Shown: one piece after another, positions 7,299 to 58,789 of the stretch
Position numbering within the stretch: the first letter of the stretch is position 1
How the letters are laid out: the number at the start of each line of letters is the position of its first letter
From: Promethearchaeota archaeon
Lineage (GTDB): Archaea; Asgardarchaeota; Heimdallarchaeia; Hodarchaeales; Hodarchaeaceae
DNA: 64,000 nucleotides
NCBI GenBank assembly: GCA_048938105.1
Contig: JBHLMN010000016.1
Span: 64,001 to 128,000, forward strand
Direction: 5' to 3'
Program-made: the position numbers and the translations under genes
The notes under the pieces: generated by a model
Told to the model about the DNA's origin: nothing
The model's database searches: none
What the model saw: only the letters and a program-made list of their open reading frames with translations

Positions 7299-8315
7299 AT
7301 GCAGGTGATTCCGATTGCATCAGAATCTTTAGGAACTAGAGGACTTTCCTTATTTGTAATTTCTGAAGATCAAAGAATTTTAATTGACCCATCGGTTTCT
7401 CTTGCTCCCTTCCGAAATGGTTATCCCCCACACATTCAGGAGGTAGCAGCCTCTTATCTTTCTCGTCAATATATTATGAAATTTTGGGAACTTGCTACAA
7501 TTATTATTCAGACTCATTATCATGCGGATCACTATTCATTAGGCATGGATCGGCCATACGAGTTCACAAATCAAGTTATAGCTGACACATTGTATTCTCA
7601 TCCTAAAAAGAAGATATTAGCTAAAGATCCAGAAAGAAATATAAATTTTAATCAGAAAAAAAGGGCATTCTGGTTATGGAGACGTAATGGAGTACCTTTA
7701 TTTGTGGCAGACGGCAATACATTCATGTTTGGTCGAACTAAAATTGTTTTTTCAGAAGCTTTACCTCATGGAAAACTATATTCAAAACAAGGGTGGGTAG
7801 TTGCAGTTCATATTTCGGATTCCTATGATAGTGTCTTGATCAGTTCTGATGTTGTAGGTCCTGGTTCTGATTTAGCATTGAATTTTATCAATGAAAATCA
7901 AGCTGAGTTGATAATCATTGATGGGCCATCAACATATCATCCTAAACAAAGTACTGAAGATACGGTTCGAGCTTTTGAGCGATTGATGGCAGTAAATGAT
8001 ATAGATCACATGATCATTGATCATCATCTTTTACGAGATCCAGATTGGAAAACATTATTGAAAGATCATAGTTTTTCAAGAGAAATTACTCTCGCAAGTC
8101 TTTTAGATATACCACCGTTTTGTTTAGAAAATAAACGATCTCTACTATATAATCAAGCTCCCTTAGATTCTTCATTTCATTCTCGATTTCACTCACATGA
8201 TAAGGAAATTGTGATGAAGATTAGAAAGGTGGCAAAAACTCTTCCACATAAGCCTAAAATTGATAGTCTTTACAAAGAGGTTCTTGAAAGACGTAAAACT
8301 ATCAATTTCCAATAA
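7299..8315 (+). CDS. metallo-beta-lactamase-fold protein, UPF0282-like
   Basis: ASESLGTRG, LIDPSVSLAP, THYHADH, IIDGP and DHHLLRD motifs typical of archaeal UPF0282. Confidence 0.8.
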   Translation: MQVIPIASESLGTRGLSLFVISEDQRILIDPSVSLAPFRNGYPPHIQEVAASYLSRQYIMKFWELATIIIQTHYHADHYSLGMDRPYEFTNQVIADTLYSHPKKKILAKDPERNINFNQKKRAFWLWRRNGVPLFVADGNTFMFGRTKIVFSEALPHGKLYSKQGWVVAVHISDSYDSVLISSDVVGPGSDLALNFINENQAELIIIDGPSTYHPKQSTEDTVRAFERLMAVNDIDHMIIDHHLLRDPDWKTLLKDHSFSREITLASLLDIPPFCLENKRSLLYNQAPLDSSFHSRFHSHDKEIVMKIRKVAKTLPHKPKIDSLYKEVLERRKTINFQ

Positions 8316-8457
8316 TTTCAACTAAATAACTTAAATTAATTACCACCAACCGAGGGCTTCCTATGGATTTTTTAGATCCATAAGTGTTTTATAAACAGGA
8401 GAAAGAAAAAGAAATTTTGTTTCAGAAACGAGTGTGCTCTTAGATTACCAATAATTC

Positions 8458-9975
8458 CTAAATGACTAATTTAGTTAAAGCATTTTTAACAAAAATGTAG
8501 GTAACAAGAAATAAAACAAATTTTGATAATCTAAAGATTTCTTTCCAAGGGATTACACCAATTTTTTCAAATTTTTTATTATTAACTCTCTTAATTGGTA
8601 AAATACTAATTACAAGGGCCATAACAAAATAAATCAACTCATATACATAATTATTCATTACTATGGACGATTGAGTAAATGAATGGTTTAACATATTTGA
8701 AACAAGGAGAAAAAATGGACTAGCTCCTGCAATAAAAGCTAATGAAATTAATGCAAGCACTTGGACAATGTTACCATGTAATTTTGCTGCTTCGAGTCGG
8801 GAAATACCTTTATTCAACAAATCATTAGTCTTATTTAATTCTTCGGTAATTGTTAATAATTTCTTACCAGCAATGAGAGTATCAATCATGGAAAATTTTT
8901 TTATCAACAAGATAAGATGCAAGATTCTTTCAGGAAAAAATTCTGCTAAGAAAGTTGGATTTATATCATTTTCTTCTGATATTCCTAGCCTAAATTGAGC
9001 ATATTTTTCTAATTTCTTAGTGGAATAGTCTTGCTGTGAACGATTTAGAATAATATTTAAAGCATTATTTAAGCTTTTATCGAACGAATTTCCCCTTAAC
9101 AGGTTCTCTGAAAGAATGACCAAAAGCTCTAAGGATTTTTTGTCATGAGATAGAAAAATCTGATTATTTTGGGAAAATAGTGTAAGGTGTCTTTCTGGGT
9201 GGATGAAAAATGATCCAATCACTATACTGATGATGATTAAAAGTCCGAAAAAGACACTCATGTTCCCAGAGATCAATAAAAAACATAAAATAACTGGAGG
9301 GCTTAAAAATATGATTCCAGATGATAATGAGGCCCAAGAGTCAATTTTATCAGTTTCTTCTGTTATTTGTTCGGAAATTCTGCTAAGAATCCTGTTTTTT
9401 GAAAGAAGAGCAATATTTTTGCCATTTTCCCAAATATCCAAAATATAAAGAAAAAGCGTCTGTATGTTCCCATGGAGATATTTTTTCATTTGAGTTTTTA
9501 AGGAAAATTCAAGGGGATTTCCGAAATGTGTTAAAATCATAGCTTTTTCGAATATCTTTGAGAATACGGGATAATTACTCAAGATAATAAATTTTGTTGA
9601 TTCTTTTAGGGAAGAAGATGTATCTAATATTACTAATAGCTCATTGATAACAAAATATCCTATTGTTTCAATGGATGTACAATATTCTTTAAATTGAAGA
9701 AAAATTATGTAATTAAATAGCCTTAAAGATACAATAATTAATACGAGCTCGATTATAATAACTTCAAGGAAAATATTCTTCATTATAAATATTTGAAATC
9801 CTACGAAAAAAAGAGATAAAGTGAAAAACGCAAAGGTAATCCAGAAAATATCTTTTTTACTTATTATATACTTTGACTCAAAATAATCCCCGAAATTATA
9901 GTGATTGAAGAAATCAAAATTCCCAAATAGTATAGAATGGAAATATTTCAATGTAATACCAATTTTCCTTGGCAT
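8458..9975 (-). CDS. polytopic membrane protein, divergent TadB/TadC (T2SS-F)-like platform protein
   Basis: Two repeats of a cytoplasmic helical domain (GNPLEFSLK, GNSFDKSLN), each followed by TM helices; divergent from a secretion ATPase. Confidence 0.55.
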   Translation of the reverse strand: MPRKIGITLKYFHSILFGNFDFFNHYNFGDYFESKYIISKKDIFWITFAFFTLSLFFVGFQIFIMKNIFLEVIIIELVLIIVSLRLFNYIIFLQFKEYCTSIETIGYFVINELLVILDTSSSLKESTKFIILSNYPVFSKIFEKAMILTHFGNPLEFSLKTQMKKYLHGNIQTLFLYILDIWENGKNIALLSKNRILSRISEQITEETDKIDSWASLSSGIIFLSPPVILCFLLISGNMSVFFGLLIIISIVIGSFFIHPERHLTLFSQNNQIFLSHDKKSLELLVILSENLLRGNSFDKSLNNALNIILNRSQQDYSTKKLEKYAQFRLGISEENDINPTFLAEFFPERILHLILLIKKFSMIDTLIAGKKLLTITEELNKTNDLLNKGISRLEAAKLHGNIVQVLALISLAFIAGASPFFLLVSNMLNHSFTQSSIVMNNYVYELIYFVMALVISILPIKRVNNKKFEKIGVIPWKEIFRLSKFVLFLVTYIFVKNALTKLVI

Positions 9976-10266
9976 ACCTCTACACCAATATTTTAGGAGA
10001 TTCCTTAATTTTAAACGATGAAAATAATAAACACAATTGAATTTTCAAACATTAAATCATCATAATGATTCACCTTCCTTTATTTAAACCCGAGAATCCT
10101 AAAAGAAAAAATCCGATCTAATTTGGATTAAATCTTCACAGTCGTAACATACTTTACGTGCTAAAACAAAGTAGATCAATTCAATCTTTACTTCTCTGTA
10201 TTTATTTCAATTTAGTTTGACTTGTGATAAACTTGGGTTATTTTAATTTCATATACAAAATCAATT

Positions 10267-10590
10267 TTGGTAATAGAATTGACTGTCCTTCAAACACATA
10301 AAACTGTCATTGAAACTACCTGTCCGATTTGTGGAAAGAATGAATCAATACTAGTAACTGCATCTGAATTGAATATTGCAAGAGAACAACATTCTCTTAT
10401 CACTAAAGCATTGACTCACTTAAAAGAAGGCCATATTCTTACTCTTTATATTGACGGGCAAGGAATTGTCCGAAGAAAATATTGTTTTGATATTGCAGAA
10501 CATAAAGCTAATTCTTTTAAAGGATCTCTTCCTAAAAAATTGAATTTAATTTTTGATCAAATGATTCAGGAGTCGAAGAAACAAAAATAA
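10267..10590 (+). CDS. small putative zinc-binding protein
   Basis: CPIC motif plus H..GH.LTLYIDGQG.VR segment; upstream of and co-oriented with the ATPase. Confidence 0.6.
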   Translation: MVIELTVLQTHKTVIETTCPICGKNESILVTASELNIAREQHSLITKALTHLKEGHILTLYIDGQGIVRRKYCFDIAEHKANSFKGSLPKKLNLIFDQMIQESKKQK

Positions 10591-10622
10591 AACCAAATAT
10601 TTTCTTTTAATGGAGCGAAAAA

Positions 10623-12092
10623 ATGAATCAATCGTTAAATATAGACTTAAATCTAAATCAAAATGAAGAAATTATGATAGATTCCTATTCATTTCATTGT
10701 TATATAGCTTCGATAATTAAAATACCACACAAAGAAGAATACGTGTATCAGGTACGATATGATCCTTTAACTTATAATCACTTGAAGGATTTCAGTCATT
10801 ATGAAAAGGAGGTTCATTTCTTTCTTAAAGAATTTGTTTTGCACCAAAATGATTTCTGTACATTTGATCAGCTTTACACTTCCTTATCAAAAGCTACTTA
10901 TAAGGAATTACAAATCCCTAAACAATTTCTAATCCCCGTTATGTTCCGTAAGCTCAATCTTGAAAAAATTGGTCCATTATTAATTGAAGATCAGATTGAC
11001 GAAATATATTTAGATTCGAGTAAGAAGAATCTCTATATAGATCATTCCCGGCATGGGAGGTGTGCTACCTCAATACAGCTTTCGAAGGAAGAAATCGAAT
11101 CTTTTGTTCATCGAATTGCACTGGAAAACGATTTTTCTCTAAATCAAAACAATCCAACAATGAAAGCAGATTTTGTATCTAAATTGTTCCATTCCCGGAT
11201 CACAGTAGATATTCCTCCTCTTATTATCGATGATATTCACATTGATATCAGGAAATTTCATTCAAAGATATTGAGAATTTCAGATCTGATTAAGAATGGA
11301 AGTCTTACCCTAAGTCAAGCAATTTTCTTAGTATATTTAATTCAAAATCAGGTTTCGATTTCAATAATTGGGCCTCCAAATTCAGGGAAAACAACATTGC
11401 AAAATGCTTTGATTGAATATATTCCTCCTCATTTTCGACTTCTATCAGTGGAAGATGTTTTAGAAACCGCTGAAATAAGACGTGGAAACACTGTTAGATT
11501 CCGTTTAGGTTATGATCCGCATGAAAGCATGATTTTTTCAAAATCGCTTGAAGTCCAAAAAATACTACATAGAAGTCCAGATTTTATTAATTTAGGGGAG
11601 CTTTCCACAAAAAATCATTTTACTGCTTTTTTGAATGTTCTATCTGTTGGAATCCCATCAATTCAAACAATACATGGAAGAACTCCAGAATTTCTTTTCG
11701 TACGTTTGAGAGACATATATAACATTCCTCTAGAACTCTTAAAAGCTTCATTTCCTCATATTTTCATCGAGTTGAACGTTTCTTGGATCAAAAATAAGAA
11801 AAAACGTACAATTATGCGGATTGCAGAATTAACAAATGAAGGTGAAATTACTAATTTGTCTAACAAAGCAATCGAATCATTTGTCGCCTATCCTAATACT
11901 GAATCAGGAATTTTCACACTTGCTTATCTGATTAAGAACAATCAGACTAATCTCAATGATTTTATTGTTAATATCCAAAAAACAGCCTTATTATTGTCTG
12001 GAAACTCGTTTCATAAAGAAATTAAACAAGAAGCGGTTGATTTCAATCATCGGAATAAGAATGAAAATAAGATTGTAAAAAATAAAAACTAA
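10623..12092 (+). CDS. type II/IV secretion system ATPase (TadA/CpaF/VirB11 family)
   Basis: Walker A GPPNSGKT, Asp box SVEDVLE, Walker B-like SPDFINLGEL, His-box TIHG, upstream IDIRKF. Confidence 0.88.
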   Translation: MNQSLNIDLNLNQNEEIMIDSYSFHCYIASIIKIPHKEEYVYQVRYDPLTYNHLKDFSHYEKEVHFFLKEFVLHQNDFCTFDQLYTSLSKATYKELQIPKQFLIPVMFRKLNLEKIGPLLIEDQIDEIYLDSSKKNLYIDHSRHGRCATSIQLSKEEIESFVHRIALENDFSLNQNNPTMKADFVSKLFHSRITVDIPPLIIDDIHIDIRKFHSKILRISDLIKNGSLTLSQAIFLVYLIQNQVSISIIGPPNSGKTTLQNALIEYIPPHFRLLSVEDVLETAEIRRGNTVRFRLGYDPHESMIFSKSLEVQKILHRSPDFINLGELSTKNHFTAFLNVLSVGIPSIQTIHGRTPEFLFVRLRDIYNIPLELLKASFPHIFIELNVSWIKNKKKRTIMRIAELTNEGEITNLSNKAIESFVAYPNTESGIFTLAYLIKNNQTNLNDFIVNIQKTALLLSGNSFHKEIKQEAVDFNHRNKNENKIVKNKN

Positions 12093-12258
12093 GGATATTG
12101 GACTTGATCCAAAAAAAAAGAATTTTCCTTCAAAATATGGATATATTTCTTTAATTGAGAGGAGTAAGAAATCTGTATAATAAAAATTTCGGGACTTTAT
12201 ATGCCTTGGTTAATCTTTAGTGTTAGATCTTTTATTTTATTGAGAATTAGGGATAATC

Positions 12259-12457
12259 TTGATTCATTTCCATCAGGCTTTAATAATAGGTGAAAAGAAC
12301 GATTTATTCTCTCCAAACATTCTAGAATATCTACAGGAGCTTTCAAAGCAGCTGATTGAATCAATATCATTTCTATTCCCTACATTACTTAGCATTGCAA
12401 TTGTAACAGTAAATCTTTCTTTGATTTCAGGAACACTCGTTTACCTCTTAGATTATA
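12259..12457 (+). pseudogene. 5' half of a pilin-like small membrane protein gene interrupted by the IscB element
   Basis: Hydrophobic ORF ...LSLISGTLVYLLDY runs into GTCAATCACC at 12458; joins in frame to 19287. Confidence 0.75.
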
Positions 12458-12735
12458 GTCAATCACCCCGAGCTCAAACCTCAGGGCTTTTTCGGTGACG
12501 AGAAAGAGTAATTGGTTGATTAGCCACAGAAAAGTTGAAGGAATAGGTAATTATGAAATCAACAGTATCTAAGTTATCAGGAGAGTTCAGGAACGCACCA
12601 AAAGATGCTTCTCTAGTCTCTTGCTCTGCAAATGAGGGGTTAAACAGAGAGGAAACTCTCAGTGCTCCTCATACAGTACTGCCTGATAACCTTGGCGAAG
12701 AGAACCAACTCCGTAATACTACGGAGAGACAGAAC
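12458..12735 (+). ncRNA. IscB omega-RNA scaffold (HEARO-like); guide predicted from the upstream flank, approx. 12438-12457
   Basis: Begins GTCAATCACCCC, pairing with TGGTTGAT (12513-12520); contains blocks typical of iscB leaders (GATGCTTCTCTAGTC, TTAAACAG...CAGTG hairpin, AACCTTGGCGAAGAGA); lies directly upstream of iscB. Confidence 0.85.
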
Positions 12736-13962
12736 ATGAGTGTATCTGTCAATGTCTATGTACTGAGTATGAGAGGGTCACCTCTCATGCCAACCACACC
12801 TCGAAAAGCGCGTCTATTGTTGAAACAAGGAAAAGCATCTGTTGTTCAACGAACACCATTTACAATTCAACTCAAATATGCTACAGGTGAAACTACGCAG
12901 CCCATCACCTTGGGAATTGATGCGGGGTATTCTACCATTGGTTTTTCCGCAATTGCAGCAAAAAAAGAACTTATTGCAGGTGAAGTAGTATTAAGAACAG
13001 ATATCTCAAAAAGATTAGCCCAAAGACGCATGTATCGTAGAAACAGACGTAGTTATCTTTGGTATCGAAAGCCCCGTTTTCTTAACCGTACTCATGCCAA
13101 AAAAGAGGGATGGTTTGCTCCAAGTATTCAACACAAATTCGATTCTCATATTCGATTAGTGAAAAAAATTCAGAAGATTTTATCTATTACAAATATCATT
13201 GTTGAAGTGGCATCATTTGATACTCTAAAGATGCAGAATCCAGAGATAAACGGGATAGAATATCAACAAGGAGAATTACAAGGTTATGAAGTAAGGGAAT
13301 ATCTACTTGTAAAATATGGAAGAAAATGTGTCTATTGTGGAAAATCTGGCATTCCCTTAGAAGTAGAACATATAAAACCGAAATCGAGAGGAGGGTCAAA
13401 TCGTGTTTCAAACTTGGCAATTTCGTGCCAAAAATGCAACCAAAAAAAAGGTGATCAAACTGCTGCTGAATTTGGACATTCTAAAGTGCAAAAACAGGCC
13501 AAGCGACCCTTAAAAGCTCCCACATTCATGAATAATGTTCGTCAAAAAATCGTGGCTAAATTGAACAGTCAATATACTTATGGTTTCATCACAAAGTATA
13601 ATCGAATTAAACTCGGTTTAAACAAGTCTCATATTAATGATGCATATGTCATTGCTGGAGGGAAATTATGTCAACAACGAACTAAACCATTTTATGTTAA
13701 TCAAATCCGACGTAATAATCGTAGTCTACAATTAAATCGGAAAGGATTTAGAGTATCTATCCGAAAGTCTCACTATCCTTTTCAACCCAATGACCTCGTC
13801 AAAGTAAAAACAACCAATTCTCTATATCGAGTTAAAGGAACTCATTGCAAAGGGACACGGATTATGGTACAGTCACTCAATTTAGTTAAGAAAAAGATTA
13901 GTTTAAGTTTCAAGAATATTGAGTTGGTCACCTATGGTAAGGGATTGTCATTTAAATATTAA
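12736..13962 (+). CDS. iscB: RNA-guided endonuclease IscB (408 aa)
   Basis: N-terminal PLMP motif, RuvC-I GIDAG, Arg-rich bridge helix, RuvC-II IVEVASFD, HNH with CVYC/CQKC (EHIKPKSRGGSN...N), RuvC-III SHINDA. The ORF-track start at 12553 extends into the omega-RNA. Confidence 0.95.
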   Translation: MSVSVNVYVLSMRGSPLMPTTPRKARLLLKQGKASVVQRTPFTIQLKYATGETTQPITLGIDAGYSTIGFSAIAAKKELIAGEVVLRTDISKRLAQRRMYRRNRRSYLWYRKPRFLNRTHAKKEGWFAPSIQHKFDSHIRLVKKIQKILSITNIIVEVASFDTLKMQNPEINGIEYQQGELQGYEVREYLLVKYGRKCVYCGKSGIPLEVEHIKPKSRGGSNRVSNLAISCQKCNQKKGDQTAAEFGHSKVQKQAKRPLKAPTFMNNVRQKIVAKLNSQYTYGFITKYNRIKLGLNKSHINDAYVIAGGKLCQQRTKPFYVNQIRRNNRSLQLNRKGFRVSIRKSHYPFQPNDLVKVKTTNSLYRVKGTHCKGTRIMVQSLNLVKKKISLSFKNIELVTYGKGLSFKY

Positions 13963-14199
13963 TTGGTTAATTATGAGTTATACCACCTTTGGCTCTTATA
14001 GAGATCCCATTTCCATTAAGTAATGCCTCTTATTCTACCAATGTAGTCTTAACTTTTGCTTAAAAACCCGAGAAAAACTCCTGGAATGCCCTTTTTTATG
14101 CCCTTATTTTATAGATTTCCCCTCTAGGACTCTCACTGAATTTCCATACGAGAAAAAATGCCTGAACCTTGAATTTCTTATTTAGTGAAAAAGAGTTGC

Positions 14200-14238
14200 T
14201 TCATTGAGGTCGTCAAATTAGTCCATTGACGACATGAA
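14200..14238. repeat. inverted repeat / hairpin TTCAT-tgag-GTCGTCAA...TTGACGAC-ATGAA
   Basis: Perfect 8-bp stem (14209-14216 / 14226-14233) extended by TTCAT/ATGAA. Confidence 0.6.
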
Positions 14239-15085
14239 CACATTATAATTGCTTCCTCACTATTCTACTGTAGAAGAGATGTAATCAACCTTATTGGGCA
14301 TAAAAGTATCTCCCTCCTGAAATAATTGTCATTAAGGAGGAATAGTTAAATTCATTAAGGAAGAACCATCTAATACAATCAGGAAGACAAGTTTTTTCTT
14401 CACACAAAGGCTATTGAAAGAAGAAACTCGCCTCCAAGAATTAAGATAGTAGAGATTGACTCTTCCCAAAGAATTCAATCCTCTTTTATCTTTTTTCTCA
14501 GTTTGTGTAAGCTTCCTTAGATAAAATTAAAAAAGAATTCTTACCATTTTTCTTCTAATCTATGATATCTAGAATAGCCCAAACTCTCTTTCTAACATCT
14601 TTGAAATTTAAGAAAATCAAAATGGATAATGATTTCCGCTGTAAAATCATGAAATATATGGCAAGCTATTCTTTTTATCGATACGTTGAAAAAAGGTTTT
14701 ATAGAATAAATAATAACCCTTACATACTCTAAAATAATGAATAAGCATACCTCGCTAGTTTGAATAATTGTCAAAACGATTTAATTACTCTTAGTATCAC
14801 AAACAACGTTAAACAAGCTAGATTAAGTATCATCGCCTCTCTCGGTTGTGTAAAGAAATCAGAACGAGATGGAAGAATCACATTACATCTTATACTATAT
14901 AATATTTGCATAGCAGAAACAACAGGTAGAGAAACATTTTCAAAATAAGAAATCCCTAAGAATGAAATCGTACTAATACGATATGTCACATATTTAAAAA
15001 TTGATATAGTACTAAGCCCCACACAGTTCAGAATAATGAAAACAAACTAATCATATGATATGTAAAGGCATAGGAGGAGAAATAT

Positions 15086-15586
15086 ATGGTATTAACTTAC
15101 GAACCTGAACTATCCAAAATAAATGACCTCTTAAATTATGGAAGGTTGTATAATAACACGTTAATAGCTATTAATCGTATTATACATGGTCTTGAACTGA
15201 ATGAGAGGCATCAAGATTCTTTGAACTCCATGAAAAATCTTTTTGATGAAGTGATAAGAGGAGAAGGACAAAACATCGAAATTAAATTGAATAGAGCCCC
15301 AAATAATGTTTCCAGCCTCAATGCTTACAGAAGAATGACTTTGTTGAGCTTACGTGATATTCTAAGAGATGTTAAAGAAGAAAATGAAGTTAAAGAATAT
15401 CTCATGGGACTTAGAGATACATTAATCAGTTTTATAAGTAATACATTAGATTTAGAAACAGAAGAAAACATAAATTCGCTAATGAAATTTCTAGGAATTT
15501 CATCAGAAACCTGTCACAAGGAAATTGAGAGACTGAGGATCGAGGAGGTTGAATTGAAGCCTTGGGAGACGAGAGAAGAGATTTAG
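15086..15586 (+). CDS. hypothetical predicted all-helical protein, first gene of the cargo operon
   Basis: 166-aa ORF with strong AGGAGGA RBS; overlaps the next gene. Confidence 0.75.
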   Translation: MVLTYEPELSKINDLLNYGRLYNNTLIAINRIIHGLELNERHQDSLNSMKNLFDEVIRGEGQNIEIKLNRAPNNVSSLNAYRRMTLLSLRDILRDVKEENEVKEYLMGLRDTLISFISNTLDLETEENINSLMKFLGISSETCHKEIERLRIEEVELKPWETREEI

Positions 15587-17169
15587 CTACAATTGAATCT
15601 TGCATTCAACAAATAAATTTCTTTGTGGATGAAATCTATCTACTAGAAAAGGCCTCCTTAATTAATTATCAAAGATTCTATCAGCTTTTAAATAAAATAT
15701 GCAGAATTATCCTTAATCAACTAGAGGACTTGAAAACTGAAAGAGGTGATCTGGAAGAGTTAGAAGAAAATAATCATATTACGAAAGTAAAAAGAACCAT
15801 TATCATTCAAGCAAAAAACCTACTTGAAACTGTTTCACAACTTCAATGGTACCTTAAGCAGCTATCTTTAGGTACAGGGAGAGAAGAAAACATCCCCGTT
15901 GAATTTATTTTTCCTCTAGAGCCTATCATTGAACATTTTATTGAAGAAAATTTGATTTTTCTTATTGCATCCTGGGAACGTAATTATAAGATCGTAGATT
16001 TTTCTAATGTGTTGAGCCGCATTTTTAAGAATGATAAGGTGATTCTAGACGAGATTAATCACTTCAAAGATCATATCATAATTATCAATCTTCCATGTGC
16101 ATGGAAAGAAGCAGCTTTAATGCATCCATTACTTTTTCATGAGATCGGTCATTTATTGATTAATCTTAATCCTCAAGGGTATAAAGAAAATTTCATTATG
16201 TCAATCGATAATAAAAAGATTGAAAGGATTCTAAAAAGAATTCGATCTGATTTTTCCAATAAGAACTCTAAGGTACTGAAAGATCTTCAATATTTCATTA
16301 ATCAAAGTATTTTTCAGGTAGATATCGTAACAACATCATTGAATTGGTATAATGAGATTCTTTGTGATTTTTTTGGCTTTTCATTAATGAATCTTGGATT
16401 TATATTCGCTTTCACATCATTTTTTAGAACATCGGCCAGTTTAACATCGTGTGGACCGACTCATCCCCCAGGATTCTTAAGATTTGGATTACTTTACTAT
16501 AAGTTATCTAAAGATAAAAGGATTCTCGATTTTTTGAAAACTATATCACCTGATGTTTATAATCTTCTTAAAGATTCAGCTACAAGATGGGAATACTATA
16601 AATCAAAATTAACTTATCTTAATCAGGCTTGTGTCGAAGTTTTAGAGAATTATAAAGAACACCTTCTTGACTCAAACTTGCATGAAATGAGAGGTTTGAG
16701 TATTGAGGAATTTATATACAACCATGATAGGTTTATAAAGTATAAAGACAAATTGTTTGAACTTTTACTTAATTTTATACCAATTAACGAAATAATAATA
16801 AGTGAAACTGAATCCTACCAATGTAATCTAGCATTAATTATTAATGTTGGTTGGTTCTTTTATTATAATAAAGAATTTGACTTATTTAAAGAAAAAGCTC
16901 TAGAACATAAAGAAAAACCTGAATCACGTTACTCAGGGTCTTTAGGTCCAGGGATTAGTCAAATTCACAGAGATAAGGAAATTCCAAAGCTTCATGTGGC
17001 TTTTGATATTTCAAACAACGAAAAATTTGAAAATAACTTTTACAAGGAAAGGCCTAGTCCTTTCTCTTTTTTAAATTGCATTATAAACAAATCGATTCAG
17101 CTTTCTTTCATCCAGGAATATCTAAAAGATATTTGGGAGAGAAAACAAGATGTTTCTACCAAGAATTGA
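15562..17169 (+). CDS. HExxH zincin-like protein (putative metallopeptidase)
   Basis: LFHEIGHL, downstream NEILCD (third ligand-like) and THPP, an arrangement resembling gluzincin/M48 peptidases; GAGGAGG RBS. Confidence 0.65.
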   Translation: MGDERRDLATIESCIQQINFFVDEIYLLEKASLINYQRFYQLLNKICRIILNQLEDLKTERGDLEELEENNHITKVKRTIIIQAKNLLETVSQLQWYLKQLSLGTGREENIPVEFIFPLEPIIEHFIEENLIFLIASWERNYKIVDFSNVLSRIFKNDKVILDEINHFKDHIIIINLPCAWKEAALMHPLLFHEIGHLLINLNPQGYKENFIMSIDNKKIERILKRIRSDFSNKNSKVLKDLQYFINQSIFQVDIVTTSLNWYNEILCDFFGFSLMNLGFIFAFTSFFRTSASLTSCGPTHPPGFLRFGLLYYKLSKDKRILDFLKTISPDVYNLLKDSATRWEYYKSKLTYLNQACVEVLENYKEHLLDSNLHEMRGLSIEEFIYNHDRFIKYKDKLFELLLNFIPINEIIISETESYQCNLALIINVGWFFYYNKEFDLFKEKALEHKEKPESRYSGSLGPGISQIHRDKEIPKLHVAFDISNNEKFENNFYKERPSPFSFLNCIINKSIQLSFIQEYLKDIWERKQDVSTKN

Positions 17170-17668
17170 AATAATAAATCGTATTTTTAATGAACAAGAT
17201 TTTAATAAACGAATAATAGTAACACCCTTTTTTGACCCTGATGAGCAAATTGGTGATGGTACTCTTGATCTGAGGTTAGGTTTTTCATTTTTGAAAATGT
17301 CTCGTGAATATATTCCTTATGTTAATGTTTTGGATGAGGATGTATACACTAAAATTGATTCTTCTCATAAAAAGATTCTTTATTATCCTCGTTGGACCAC
17401 AAAAGAAATAACTCTTCATCCTGGTGACTTTTTATTAGGTGCTACTCTTGAATACGTTAAACTTCCAGATGATTTAATGGCACTCATTTCAGGACGTTCC
17501 TCGTGGGCTCGATTAGGAATCGTTATTCAGGCAACTGGAGGTGTTATTCATCCCAATTTTAACGGTACTATAACTTTTGAATTAGCTAATGTTAGTTCCA
17601 TGCCTGTTAACCTCTACCCTGGGATGAGAATTGCACAATTAGTATTTTCAAGTTGTTCCAATGATTAA
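17150..17668 (+). CDS. dcd: dCTP deaminase, trimeric dUTPase fold, with short C-terminus
   Basis: LDLRLG, LGATLEYVKLP, GRSSWARLG, GTITFELAN, LYPGMRIAQLVF. Confidence 0.88.
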   Translation: MFLPRIEIINRIFNEQDFNKRIIVTPFFDPDEQIGDGTLDLRLGFSFLKMSREYIPYVNVLDEDVYTKIDSSHKKILYYPRWTTKEITLHPGDFLLGATLEYVKLPDDLMALISGRSSWARLGIVIQATGGVIHPNFNGTITFELANVSSMPVNLYPGMRIAQLVFSSCSND

Positions 17669-17901
17669 TATGGATTATAATGATATAGACAATCTTTATT
17701 CTTGTGGTATGGATGGTTGAAACTCATTTAATAAAAATAAGTATTAATATCGAATAAATCGATTTTGTCATTTTTTTCTGATAAATATTATCTATTTATT
17801 GTGTAGCTAATACTACATAAAATTGCTAATATTGTAAATAACTTTACAAATAACTATATACCCACGATTTGGAAGGGTGAGGCAAATGTGTTTAAAACTA
17901 A

Positions 17902-19242
17902 ATGATAAAGGATGAAACTGTAAATGGATGCAGGAAAGTGAAGAGAAAATTTCTACTTATTTTCCCAGAATGGCCGCCTGCCATTGGAGGGATGCAAACT
18001 CATGCTATTTGTTTATCTAATTATCTTTTTTCTAATGGTCATAAAATACTTGTTGTTACATACAAACCAAATCATGCACAATATTCAAAACAAGAATATT
18101 TACAATCTGATAAACTCTTTAACTTCCCTGTTATAAGAATTTTATCAAGAATCACTTATTATCAAAACCTGAGAATAATTCAAAAGATTTCAAGAAAATT
18201 CAAACCAGATCTGATTTATTCAAGTAATATTTTTTATGGAATTCTTAAAGATTGGACTGGTAAACCCACAGTATGTCGATCAGTCGGAAATGATATCTTA
18301 AGGCCTTGGATTCCTTATCCTTTTAATTTTGGATCAAGATTATTGTACAACAAGGCCATAGAGGAAATTTTAGTAAAAATCTTTTTTAAATATTTAAGAG
18401 AGTTAGACATATTCCCTTTTTTAAGCTCTATTTTTCGTAAAAGACGATTAAATATTACTATACAATCTGCAAGATCAGCAGATACAATTTTACCTAATAG
18501 TCACTTTACAACGAGAATTCTTGTTGGATTTGGTGTGAATTCAGCAATTATAAAACCTATAATTGGGGGGGTTGATGTTAATTTCTTTAGAAGAGAAAAA
18601 TCAATTGATAAAAGGCCATTACGAAAAAAATTAAATTTACCAGAAGATAAAATTTTATTGTTAACTGTTTGTAGATTAGTCCAAAAGAAGCGAGTAGATC
18701 TTTTGATTAGAACTATTAAAACCGCTATCTCTAAAGATAAAAATTGGCATTTAGTAATTATTGGAAATGGTAAACGACGTAAGAAATTAATAAAATTAAC
18801 CCATGACCTTGAATTAACGGAATTTATAACTTTTATAGGCTCAATACCATATTATTCAATACCACAATATTATTGGACTGCAGATTTGTTTATTCTTGCT
18901 AGTAAAATCTTCTATCAATCTAAGACAAAAACTTATGATGTCGAAACGATGGGTAGGGTATTATGTGAAGCCAATGCAGCAGGAGTTCCAGTACTCGCCT
19001 CAAAAAGTGGTGGTATTCCCTCTATTATAACTAATAAGAAAAATGGTTTGCTTTTTAACACAGATGATCAGACTGTTCTTTGTGAGAAAATTACTTACAT
19101 GCTTAACAATAAAAAAATGCTTGAGGATTTTAGTCGAAATGGATTGTATTATGCTGAAGAGAAATTTGATTGGTCTATAGTGTTTCAAAAACATGAAGAA
19201 ATATTTGAAAATCTGTTAAATGGGAAAAGAACTGGTACCTAA
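17902..19242 (+). CDS. glycosyltransferase family 4 (GT-B)
   Basis: PPAIGGMQT N-terminal loop, VCRLVQKKRVD, ETMGRVLCEANAAGVPV (E-x7-E), SGGIPSII. Confidence 0.92.
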   Translation: MIKDETVNGCRKVKRKFLLIFPEWPPAIGGMQTHAICLSNYLFSNGHKILVVTYKPNHAQYSKQEYLQSDKLFNFPVIRILSRITYYQNLRIIQKISRKFKPDLIYSSNIFYGILKDWTGKPTVCRSVGNDILRPWIPYPFNFGSRLLYNKAIEEILVKIFFKYLRELDIFPFLSSIFRKRRLNITIQSARSADTILPNSHFTTRILVGFGVNSAIIKPIIGGVDVNFFRREKSIDKRPLRKKLNLPEDKILLLTVCRLVQKKRVDLLIRTIKTAISKDKNWHLVIIGNGKRRKKLIKLTHDLELTEFITFIGSIPYYSIPQYYWTADLFILASKIFYQSKTKTYDVETMGRVLCEANAAGVPVLASKSGGIPSIITNKKNGLLFNTDDQTVLCEKITYMLNNKKMLEDFSRNGLYYAEEKFDWSIVFQKHEEIFENLLNGKRTGT

Positions 19243-19286
19243 TGATTATTCAACATATTACTTTCTTTCGGTGAATAAAGATTAGA

Positions 19287-19612
19287 ATGAGGAAAATGGA
19301 AAAATGATGATTCTTAGATCATTTATAATTCTAATACTCTTAATCTCTATTTTTAATCTAAAATTTCCTAGGTCAACGGTGGTTATGGAACCATTTGAGG
19401 GTTTTTTTCCTTTAACTTCATTTATCACATCATATTTATTGTTTATTTTTGCAGTATTATCTCTTATAGTCTTCATTGGAAATTTAGGCCTTTATCTCCT
19501 TACCTCAGATTCAGAACGGATCAAGAACTTGAAAAAAAGCACATTCTGCCTTTTCTGTATTATTTTACCATTAGGTTTTCAATTTCCACATATGCCGATA
19601 TGGAAAATGTGA
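19287..19612 (+). pseudogene. 3' half of the interrupted pilin-like membrane gene (may be expressed from ATG 19304)
   Basis: In-frame (N)EENGKMMILRSFIILILL... continues the 12259 frame; preceded by an in-frame TAG that lies within the insert. Confidence 0.7.
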
Positions 19613-19616
19613 TTTT

Positions 19617-19805
19617 ATGCCGAATGAGATTCTAGTAATTATAATATCAGCTTGTTTGGATATATTTTCATCGGAACAATTTAGGGCATTTTTAATAGCT
19701 CTTGGGTCTATAATCTATGCTCCCACTGGCAGTCGAATTGGAAAATATTGTCTATTGTTTGGTCTTTTCATTTTTACACTCAATAATCTAATAATAGGCA
19801 TTTGA
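19617..19805 (+). CDS. small two-TM pilin-like membrane protein
   Basis: FLIALGSIIY-APTGSRIGK-YCLLFGLFIF hairpin pattern; 4 nt after the previous stop. Confidence 0.5.
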   Translation: MPNEILVIIISACLDIFSSEQFRAFLIALGSIIYAPTGSRIGKYCLLFGLFIFTLNNLIIGI

Positions 19806-25013: not shown

Positions 25014-25121
25014 TGGGCCCACCCGGATTTGAACCGGGGATCTCTCGGTTATCAGCATCGCCCGCTCTGATGAATACCCTTCAGAACGCCGAGCGCTTTA
25101 ACCAGGCTAAGCCATGGGCCC
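25014..25121 (-). tRNA. tRNA-Ile(GAT) with 33-nt intron at 30/31 (25057-25089)
   Basis: GGGCCCA/TGGGCCC acceptor, CTCGG-CTGATAA-CCGAG after splicing, TTCAAAT T-loop; strict BHB (CGCU/GGCG helix, CG|G and AU|G bulges). Confidence 0.92.
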
Positions 25122-37843: not shown

Positions 37844-37951
37844 TGGTGGACCAGCCGAGACTCGAACTCGGGGGTTGCGGTCATCCAAGGGTGAACCCTA
37901 TGGACACTCCGCCTTGCGAAGGCGGCGTGATACCAACTTCACCACTGGCCC
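37844..37951 (-). tRNA. tRNA-Ala(CGC) with 32-nt intron at 45/46 (37875-37906), CCA encoded
   Basis: G3:U70 acceptor, CCGCC-TTCGCAA-GGCGG, GCGG/CCGC central helix with AG|U and AA|C bulges; 76 nt after splicing. Confidence 0.92.
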
Positions 37952-44644: not shown

Positions 44645-45224
44645 TAACTATTAGCTCCTTATTTTTTACCGTCAAAAACATACAATAAGCCGAGATTTAG
44701 AGTGGTCTTTAAGAGTTCTGTTGTGTTAACTTCTCTGAAAATCCCAAATGTTTTCTTAATTAAACCAATCTAAGATAGACAGAATTCTTTATGCTATGAC
44801 AAAGATTTCCAAAGAAAGCACGGATAAGTTTTACTAATAATTCAAGTCAGTTAATTTGAAAACCTTTTCCTTTAAATGTGGGATGAATGACAAGAAAGGA
44901 TGTTTTTAAGGACATTAAAGACAAATTGATTCTAGAAAACTCACATTAAGGGAGTAAGGGAATAAAGATTTATTTTCAAACACTAAAAAAGATTTTTCAT
45001 CTCATTCTGAGAGATCGTACAGACTTCTCAACTCTAGGAGGCTGTTGTTCACAAATGGAAGTCCTGGTGAAAATTGGATATATTAATATTATTTTTAACT
45101 TTCAAAAACTGGATGAAAATCCAAGAGGAAGTACTCTTCAAAGTTATATATTGAGCTCTCAAAGAGATATTTTCCAACACATTTCTTTTTTTTGATTTAA
45201 TTTTTGATAAAAAAAGAGTTAGAA

Positions 45225-58663: not shown

Positions 58664-58789
58664 GGGCCTGTAGCTCAGTTTAGGGTGTTCAACATTCACA
58701 CTCTCTGAAATGGTTAGAGCGTCCGGCTCATAGAGCTCAAATGAGCTTGAGAAACCGGATGGTCGTGGGTTCAAATCCCCCCAGGCCCA
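58664..58789 (+). tRNA. tRNA with CAT anticodon (probably Ile2, possibly elongator Met); introns at 17/17a (58681-58710) and 37/38 (58733-58753)
   Basis: GGGCCTG/CAGGCCC acceptor resembles tRNA-Ile; both introns form strict BHB motifs (UCAG/CUGA; CUCA/UGAG). Confidence 0.88.

Follow-up and report, generated by a model that had tools for sequence, protein, structure and literature searches.

How did 6.8 kb of DNA, comprising an IscB nuclease with its guide RNA and 5.3 kb of unrelated genes, come to split a gene of an Asgard archaeon exactly at the site that the nuclease is predicted to cut? The locus lies in a 64,000-nt stretch (hereafter the window) of contig C18, part of a 5.85-Mb metagenome-assembled genome (MAG; G000) that is 99% complete and 7% contaminated. 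A preliminary description had read the whole insert as a cargo-carrying IscB transposon of the OMEGA type, placed at a guide/target-adjacent motif (TAM) junction and able to cut empty alleles. Our analysis upholds the insertion site and its geometry, and points to another history: with about as much for it as against it, we suggest a homing nuclease stranded from its transposase, whose own cut site would have collected foreign DNA during repair.

The insert separates the two halves of a 174-aa membrane gene that is conserved across the genus:

12259-12457, plus strand: 5' half of the split host gene, from orthologues
19287-19612, plus strand: 3' half of the split host gene, from orthologues; 18 nt of it are deleted in the strain sequenced in run X4

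Removal of the 6829 bp between them (12458-19286) joins 12457 to 19287 and restores a 174-aa open frame. The preliminary description had leaned on this frame and on a repeat between the two halves; the frame is indeed open and the repeat is real, but many neighboring joins are equally open and 1.6% of shuffles reach the score of the repeat, so that both are weak as proof. The insertion splitting the gene at 12457^19287 is confirmed, and resolved to the base, because orthologues read through the join undivided, for which the open frame alone would be insufficient. The 3' half is matched in 18 out of 20 same-genus genomes, which hold the gene in one piece, and in all 18 a single tblastn match crosses the join. 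The closest orthologues align over the join without gaps at 79% and 74% identity, and several read YLLDYNEENGK there. At the DNA level, the empty site reads ...TTAGACTATA^ATGAGGAAAATG in G008 (TATA^ATGAGG type) and ...TTAGATTATA^ATGAAG in G003 (TATA^ATGAAG type); G003 and G011 retain intact synteny at the locus and are free of both cargo and insert. Independent junction support exists on one side: the right junction is crossed by contigs in three runs (X1, the possible source sample, X2, and X4 from a different study), and the link from iscB to the glycosyltransferase of the cargo is also present in X4, but no contig among those listed from the runs spans the left junction, whose basis is the assembly together with orthologue alignments that end exactly at 12457. 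The split gene shows no clear rate acceleration in a relative-rate comparison.

The guide side of the insert is a plain OMEGA-IscB module:

12442-12457, plus strand: TACCTCTTAGATTATA, the predicted 16-nt guide, which the host flank supplies and which adjoins the HEARO start
12458-12709, plus strand: omega RNA (HEARO) scaffold, which serves as the transposon's right end and starts with GTCA (Rfam RF02033, full model, 115.7 bits)
12736-13962, plus strand: iscB, 408 aa (NF040563, 391 bits against a cut-off of 175; Pfam RRXRR and HNH)

The protein combines a split RuvC with HNH and PLMP, HEARO lies directly 5' of iscB, and the guide flank is host DNA. All IscB motifs are present (PLMP; RuvC D62, E157, H299 and D302; HNH H212; and the TAM-side His370), with just 4 substitutions across 85 conserved columns. 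The site is of the N^ATGA type, without target duplication and with a 5' end of GTCA, as in ISC transposons. Guides of 16-17 nt are known for IscB, and OgeuIscB requires ~14 TAM-proximal matches (PMC9640706); by that requirement, the occupied allele offers no target at either junction. A search of the genome revealed no further site with at most 2 mismatches to the guide before ATG[AG].

Among relatives with readable element ends, residue 370 of IscB is His in 10 of 11 with ATGA targets vs 1 of 22 with ATAA targets (Fisher p 1e-6, for kin that are not independent and some targets called by hand). Across loci L023-L109 the motif reads KGxH with ATGA targets and KGxF with ATAA targets, and the DNA end guide switches in parallel, TNTC with ATGA vs TNTT with ATAA. 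A by-product of this comparison is a TAM rule at position 370, His for ATGA and Phe for ATAA. Given this covariation we infer an ATGA-type TAM for the IscB of the window, and since it carries His370, as ATGA-target relatives do, the reconstructed empty allele is likely to be its substrate. The geometry of the preliminary description (HEARO starting at 12458, host flank as guide, ATGA on the 19287 side) and its ATGA-type TAM are thus retained, the latter by covariation; the logic that the empty allele is the target had already been published (Meers 2023; Mears 2025). The closest IscB (72%, L139 7650-9400) lies in the same syntenic region but ~8 kb further on, past an RNA polymerase subunit gene, at a locus with a ~25-bp tandem duplication of the guide flank, a degenerate left end and a right flank that is lost or rearranged; this nearest IscB and one syntenic contig come from a Hodarchaeales genome, which makes Hodarchaeales the probable group of G000 as well. 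G000 itself holds a second, distant iscB with a HEARO RNA, frameshifted into two open reading frames (ORFs; L002 1048-1730, on contig C9).

What the analysis does not support is that the 5 kb lie inside the transposon ends and moved with the element. Related elements close shortly after iscB, with AATTC(A/C)TC, a GC hairpin, a 4-nt guide and a linker of ~9-21 nt before the target; the end motif [AG]ATTC[AC]TC begins -11 to +37 nt from the iscB end in 28 relatives, and here AATT stands at +9:

13963-13977, plus strand: AATT (13969-13972) as a probable, collapsed left end, with the target ATGAG (13973-13977) immediately after it and no hairpin

The IscB unit probably ends at 13972, as an ISC of 1515 bp. 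For comparison, an ATGAG lies within 30 nt of the stop in 4% of ORFs, a figure chosen after looking. This second ATGAG was overlooked in the preliminary description, as was the lack of a transposon end at 19286, where only TTTC and a 17-nt linker occur, with no GC hairpin and with a score reached by 4.8% of ATGA sites. A profile built from 35 related left ends finds none in the insert (best E 0.91), and the same profile finds hairpins elsewhere in the genome. At the opposite end the omega-RNA hairpin folds, and its TnpA guide reads CTTT vs CTTG or CATG in 34 relatives. Y1 TnpA (PF01797), which the preliminary description had suggested searching for in trans, was not found in the genome (serine TnpA was not searched for); the genome holds 23 TnpB-domain matches, and Y1 TnpA is present in 2 of 20 relatives. 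Nor was a second copy of the 6.8-kb unit or of its end, which the preliminary description had suggested looking for at other loci, found in the genome or the other sequences searched. Measured as an ISC transposon, the 6.8-kb unit falls short on the iscB-distal hairpin plus guide, on Y1 TnpA and on occurrence at multiple loci in the sequences searched; the layering of the cargo and the occurrence of its gene module without iscB, both described below, also speak against a single mobile block. With its left-end hairpin missing, a mutated guide at the omega end and no Y1 TnpA detected in the genome, the unit appears stranded from TnpA, and it seems to have lost the ability to jump.

Other leads on the ends were set aside. 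The window contains a perfect 8-bp hairpin at 14209-14234 (GTCGTCAA...TTGACGAC), whose 5' arm terminates a 51-nt piece that C38:10987-11037 matches without a difference. This hairpin was rejected as the element's original end: no guide or linker stands before ATGA, the 5' arm lies inside the C38-identical piece, the DNA ahead of the hairpin is host-like, and X4 does not have it; a fold-back repair scar is a possible origin. Six genomes contain exact matches to the right-end 19-mer, which show no similarity beyond the pattern and are at chance level. Elsewhere in the window, G000:C18:108858-108892 (about 44860-44890, minus strand) weakly matches an IS200/IS605 end-hairpin profile and could mark a further element end. 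At L148 (after 1700), which comes from a same-class genome, the ORF directly 3' of iscB resembles a Y1 transposase (HIHIL motif), possibly an autonomous ISC.

Between the probable end of the IscB unit and the host gene lies the foreign DNA:

13978-19278, no strand: foreign segment of 5.3 kb that follows the IscB unit on its TAM side, absent at the locus in relatives, with no integrase or transposase gene
19279-19291, plus strand: AGATTAGA plus ATGAG, which agrees at 12/13 positions with the empty site (the TAM and the 8 protospacer nt next to it)
14001-17818, no strand: 3818-bp inner layer, absent in the X4 strain, with ATA microhomology at both ends
14054-14765, no strand: mosaic of short host-lineage fragments at the start of the inner layer

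Once 12458-13972 is removed, the left joint reads AGATTATA-ATGAG and the right joint AGATTAGA-ATGAG, a 12/13 direct repeat around the 5.3 kb, and blast alignments overlap by 8 nt at the site against G003. A 7/8 protospacer match precedes 0.24% of genomic ATGAG sites, a comparison chosen after looking. The cargo is layered rather than a single block: one contig of X4 (depth 2.7) joins 14000 to 17819, so that iscB is followed directly by the glycosyltransferase, and the iscB and glycosyltransferase pieces of that strain differ by ~2-3% from the window. The mosaic comprises a Zn-finger-like ORF fragment (14054-14175, 78% to a relative), the 51 nt identical to contig C38 (14168-14218), an ATPase-like pseudogene fragment (about 14270-14480) and a piece shared with G002 (14689-14765). 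Measured as an island, the segment has its flanking direct repeat (12/13); it holds no recombinase gene, and its inverted ends, considered as terminal inverted repeats, are at chance level (22%). Its left end was not found in viral contigs, and GC content does not mark the cargo out.

We suggest that these features arose in three steps. An ordinary non-autonomous ISC of ~1.5 kb (omega RNA plus iscB) would first have inserted at N^ATGA in the host gene, a site that is observed directly, presumably moved by a Y1 TnpA acting in trans. IscB would then have cut empty copies of the site, and a single repair event may have copied the element from the guide side, stalled at the left-end hairpin and lost it; foreign DNA would have been joined in at that point, and its join to the right-hand broken end would have kept the TAM-proximal 8 nt of the protospacer. 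The outcome would be a cargo that has an ATGAG motif on either side and lies precisely where IscB cuts. Finally, the 3818-bp layer, by which the two strains are seen to differ, would have been gained here or lost in the sister strain. TnpA would no longer move the resulting unit, while nuclease and guide still match the empty allele. Since the homology arms flank the unit on the outside, repair that uses an occupied chromosome as template would copy the full 6.8 kb. The locus would thus behave as a site-locked homing endonuclease with hitch-hiking cargo.

In support of this idea, the omega RNA start, the empty site and the TAM coincide exactly, and we argue for a causal link between IscB and the cargo because the boundary of the foreign DNA is exactly the IscB site; the nuclease itself is the simplest such link. 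Both features recognized by TnpA are damaged and the nuclease and RNA sequences are intact; AATT plus ATGAG stand where relatives begin their left end; an ATGAG so near a stop (4%) and a 7/8 protospacer remnant (0.24%) are both infrequent, as figures chosen after looking; and the cargo has layers, one of them in part a patchwork of short pieces from the host lineage. The closest IscB, at L139, likewise has a degenerate left end and a rearranged right flank. The target strand is cut by IscB between positions 3 and 4, with indels scored around -9 (PMC13180657), and the TAM-side end can therefore keep ~8 nt of protospacer, which fits the remnant.

Several points weigh on the other side. No intermediates were found in the runs examined, namely a plain ISC allele, an iscB-less island or a within-species empty allele. 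Taken as a remnant of a left end, 19286 does reach a weak score (within the top 4.8% of ATGA sites), AGATTATA is also matched 7/8 by 2 of 21 real ends, and left-end decay is common in relatives without cargo. The X4 joint is one low-depth contig; the exact position of the non-target-strand cut may be 8 or 12 nt; and cleavage, TAM and RNA expression of this IscB are predictions. The empty-allele joint is not among the contigs listed from four runs (contigs drop rare variants), and there is no sign of ongoing drive. Among same-genus iscB copies, left-end hairpins are deleted or decayed at L142 4150-4180, L143 4700-4760 and L146 9980-10030, and at L144 the left end is intact before ATGAAG.

The direct repeat could also have another origin. 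If a 5.3-kb island had arrived first with a 13-bp duplication (AGATTATAATGAG / AGATTAGAATGAG), an ISC could later have entered the ATGA of its left copy by transposition or one-sided homing, with the hairpin lost afterwards; whole-block homing would then remain possible as a by-product. The 12/13 repeat that flanks the segment once 12458-13972 is removed is what such a history would leave, and the three-gene module of the cargo does travel without iscB. We nevertheless consider two independent insertions unlikely: the segment has no recombinase, its inverted ends are at chance level, no iscB-free island was found in the genomes, runs and viral contigs searched, and a random ISC jump to that one ATGA, among dozens in an already neutral region, would be a considerable coincidence.

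The weak end at 19286 bears on a second alternative, in which 12458-19286 is a true cargo-carrying ISC transposon moved whole by TnpA, its left end (TTTC and a 17-nt linker before ATGA) being atypical or decayed. Here TTTC at 19266-19269 obeys the guide rule of relatives (TNTC with ATGA, TNTT with ATAA), the end score falls in the top 4.8%, flexible boundary choice was shown by Meers et al., and rare cargo is reported in the IS200/IS605 family for serine-recombinase TnpB branches (PMC10691335). However, such an end would have no GC hairpin and escapes the end profile; the right-end guide is mutated, the unit is single-copy, no Y1 TnpA was found in the genome and only 2 of 20 relatives have one. 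Moreover, none of 87 related iscB loci carries the three-gene module and one carries only a distant glycosyltransferase (many of these loci are short), and ATGAG at 13973 would be left to chance. Taken together, this makes a mobile cargo transposon improbable.

The two ATGAG motifs and the exact boundary could be explained by known reactions if a circle bearing a second copy of this ISC, at AGATTAGA^ATGAG, had recombined with the chromosomal copy as a cointegrate and TnpA had then excised the second copy precisely, leaving ISC-ATGAG-cargo-ATGAG. This scenario is a long shot, as it requires several steps plus a later loss of the hairpin, leaves the 7/8 match to chance (0.24%), and no such circle was found in the sequences searched. 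That the locus is an assembly chimera, for which the 7% contamination of the MAG and the left junction without an independent spanning contig among those listed might be cited, is next to negligible, given that each junction lies at precisely the base that orthologues and ISC biology lead one to expect and that the right junction and the iscB-to-glycosyltransferase link recur in a run of another study. Apart from the chimera, all of these histories, like that of a nuclease whose cut site captured its cargo, share one present consequence: empty alleles would be cut by IscB if it is active, and repair templated by the occupied copy would bring in all 6.8 kb.

The cargo encodes four proteins:

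15086-15586, plus strand: small protein of 166 aa, without a Pfam family, first of a conserved trio (homologue in L132; genes of the same size and position in L137 and L138)
15562-17169, plus strand: HExxH zincin-like protein of 535 aa, of an unnamed family (176 relatives)
17150-17668, plus strand: dCTP deaminase with the Dcd fold (PF22769 and TIGR02274, above cut-off)
17902-19242, plus strand: GT4 glycosyltransferase of the outer cargo layer (nearest relatives at most 47%, the named ones mostly bacterial)

In the HExxH protein, H193, E194, H197 and E265 are invariant in 40 homologues, its structure model (pLDDT 85) has no fold match in the PDB, and no relative was found in the genome contig collection searched. 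The order of the trio recurs in unrelated contigs without iscB. The deaminase shares the Dcd fold with housekeeping Dcd (TIGR02274) and with the defensive dCTP deaminases of PADLOC, and unlike them it is coupled to the HExxH and small proteins. It is a guess that the trio is a defense operon, and this role is unproven because the trio matches no described anti-phage system among the PADLOC 2.0 profiles. No close copy of the glycosyltransferase (E 1e-60) exists in 81 genomes of the class; its nearest homologue (L135 1105-8379) adjoins a radical-SAM gene and a Cas12a-Cas4-Cas1-Cas2 locus.

The split gene belongs to a genus-conserved cluster (window 7299-19805), whose other members are the neighboring type II/IV secretion ATPase gene (T2SSE), a gene for a large membrane protein and, at 19617-19805, a small hydrophobic ORF. 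The match of the split gene to TrbC/VirB2 (Atlas, 0.87) is only a lead to a pilin-like product; the cluster is possibly a pilus-like system with a subunit knocked out here. Long tRNA matches (105-126 nt) at window positions 25014-25121, 37847-37951 and 58664-58789 are probably intron-containing archaeal tRNAs.

The locus resembles several known systems without coinciding with any. With the non-autonomous ISC2 transposons (Kapitonov et al. 2016, PMC4810608) it shares the 5'-GTCA start, insertion at N^ATGA without target duplication, an iscB with HNH and the lack of a transposase; the ISC families of K. racemifer described there are 1.3-1.7 kb long, with IscB only and subterminal hairpins, whereas here the 3' hairpin is gone and 5.3 kb lie between iscB and the host target. 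In IS200/IS605 elements the empty joint is cut and the element restored (Meers 2023, 10.1101/2023.03.14.532601), TnpB drive has been shown in plasmids (Mears 2025, PMC11870625), and OMEGA systems have already been framed as homing endonucleases (PMC13565253, a review). The logic is common to this locus, in that a guide from the flank and a TAM in the target direct cutting of the empty joint, into which the element is copied back; however, published cases are compact elements in bacteria, while the present one is archaeal, seemingly cut off from TnpA, and would copy 5.3 kb of unrelated genes. As in homing endonuclease genes with co-conversion, a site-locked nuclease would spread linked DNA by repair of its cut, but this one is RNA-guided, lies outside an intron or intein and destroys the host gene rather than being spliced out. 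Cargo is reported as rare in the IS200/IS605 family, for TnpB branches (Altae-Tran et al. 2023, PMC10691335); these share with the present locus the extra genes beside an OMEGA element, yet they recur and have a transposase, in contrast to a single IscB lineage whose cargo is layered and probably outside the ends. We found no description of kilobases of cargo at an IscB cut site in the literature searched.

What IscB and TnpB are known to protect and spread is so far limited to the compact elements that encode them. Comparison with 18 empty orthologues resolves the present locus to the base, and its guide and TAM, with 5.3 kb of unrelated genes between them, still match the empty allele. The locus thereby allows a direct test of whether an OMEGA nuclease can retain or spread cargo by homing alone, without a transposase, and also of whether OMEGA cut sites gather foreign DNA; as a by-product, a gene that is conserved in the genus and possibly pilin-like is naturally knocked out in this Asgard lineage. 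As a generalization that we hold only tentatively, and with more doubt than confidence, IscB elements that lose their transposase ends might turn into homing nucleases fixed in place, with foreign DNA captured where they cut; the block, here a candidate defense trio and a glycosyltransferase, might then be copied into empty alleles, which in this Asgard archaeon would amount to a natural, RNA-guided drive carrying 5 kb of cargo.

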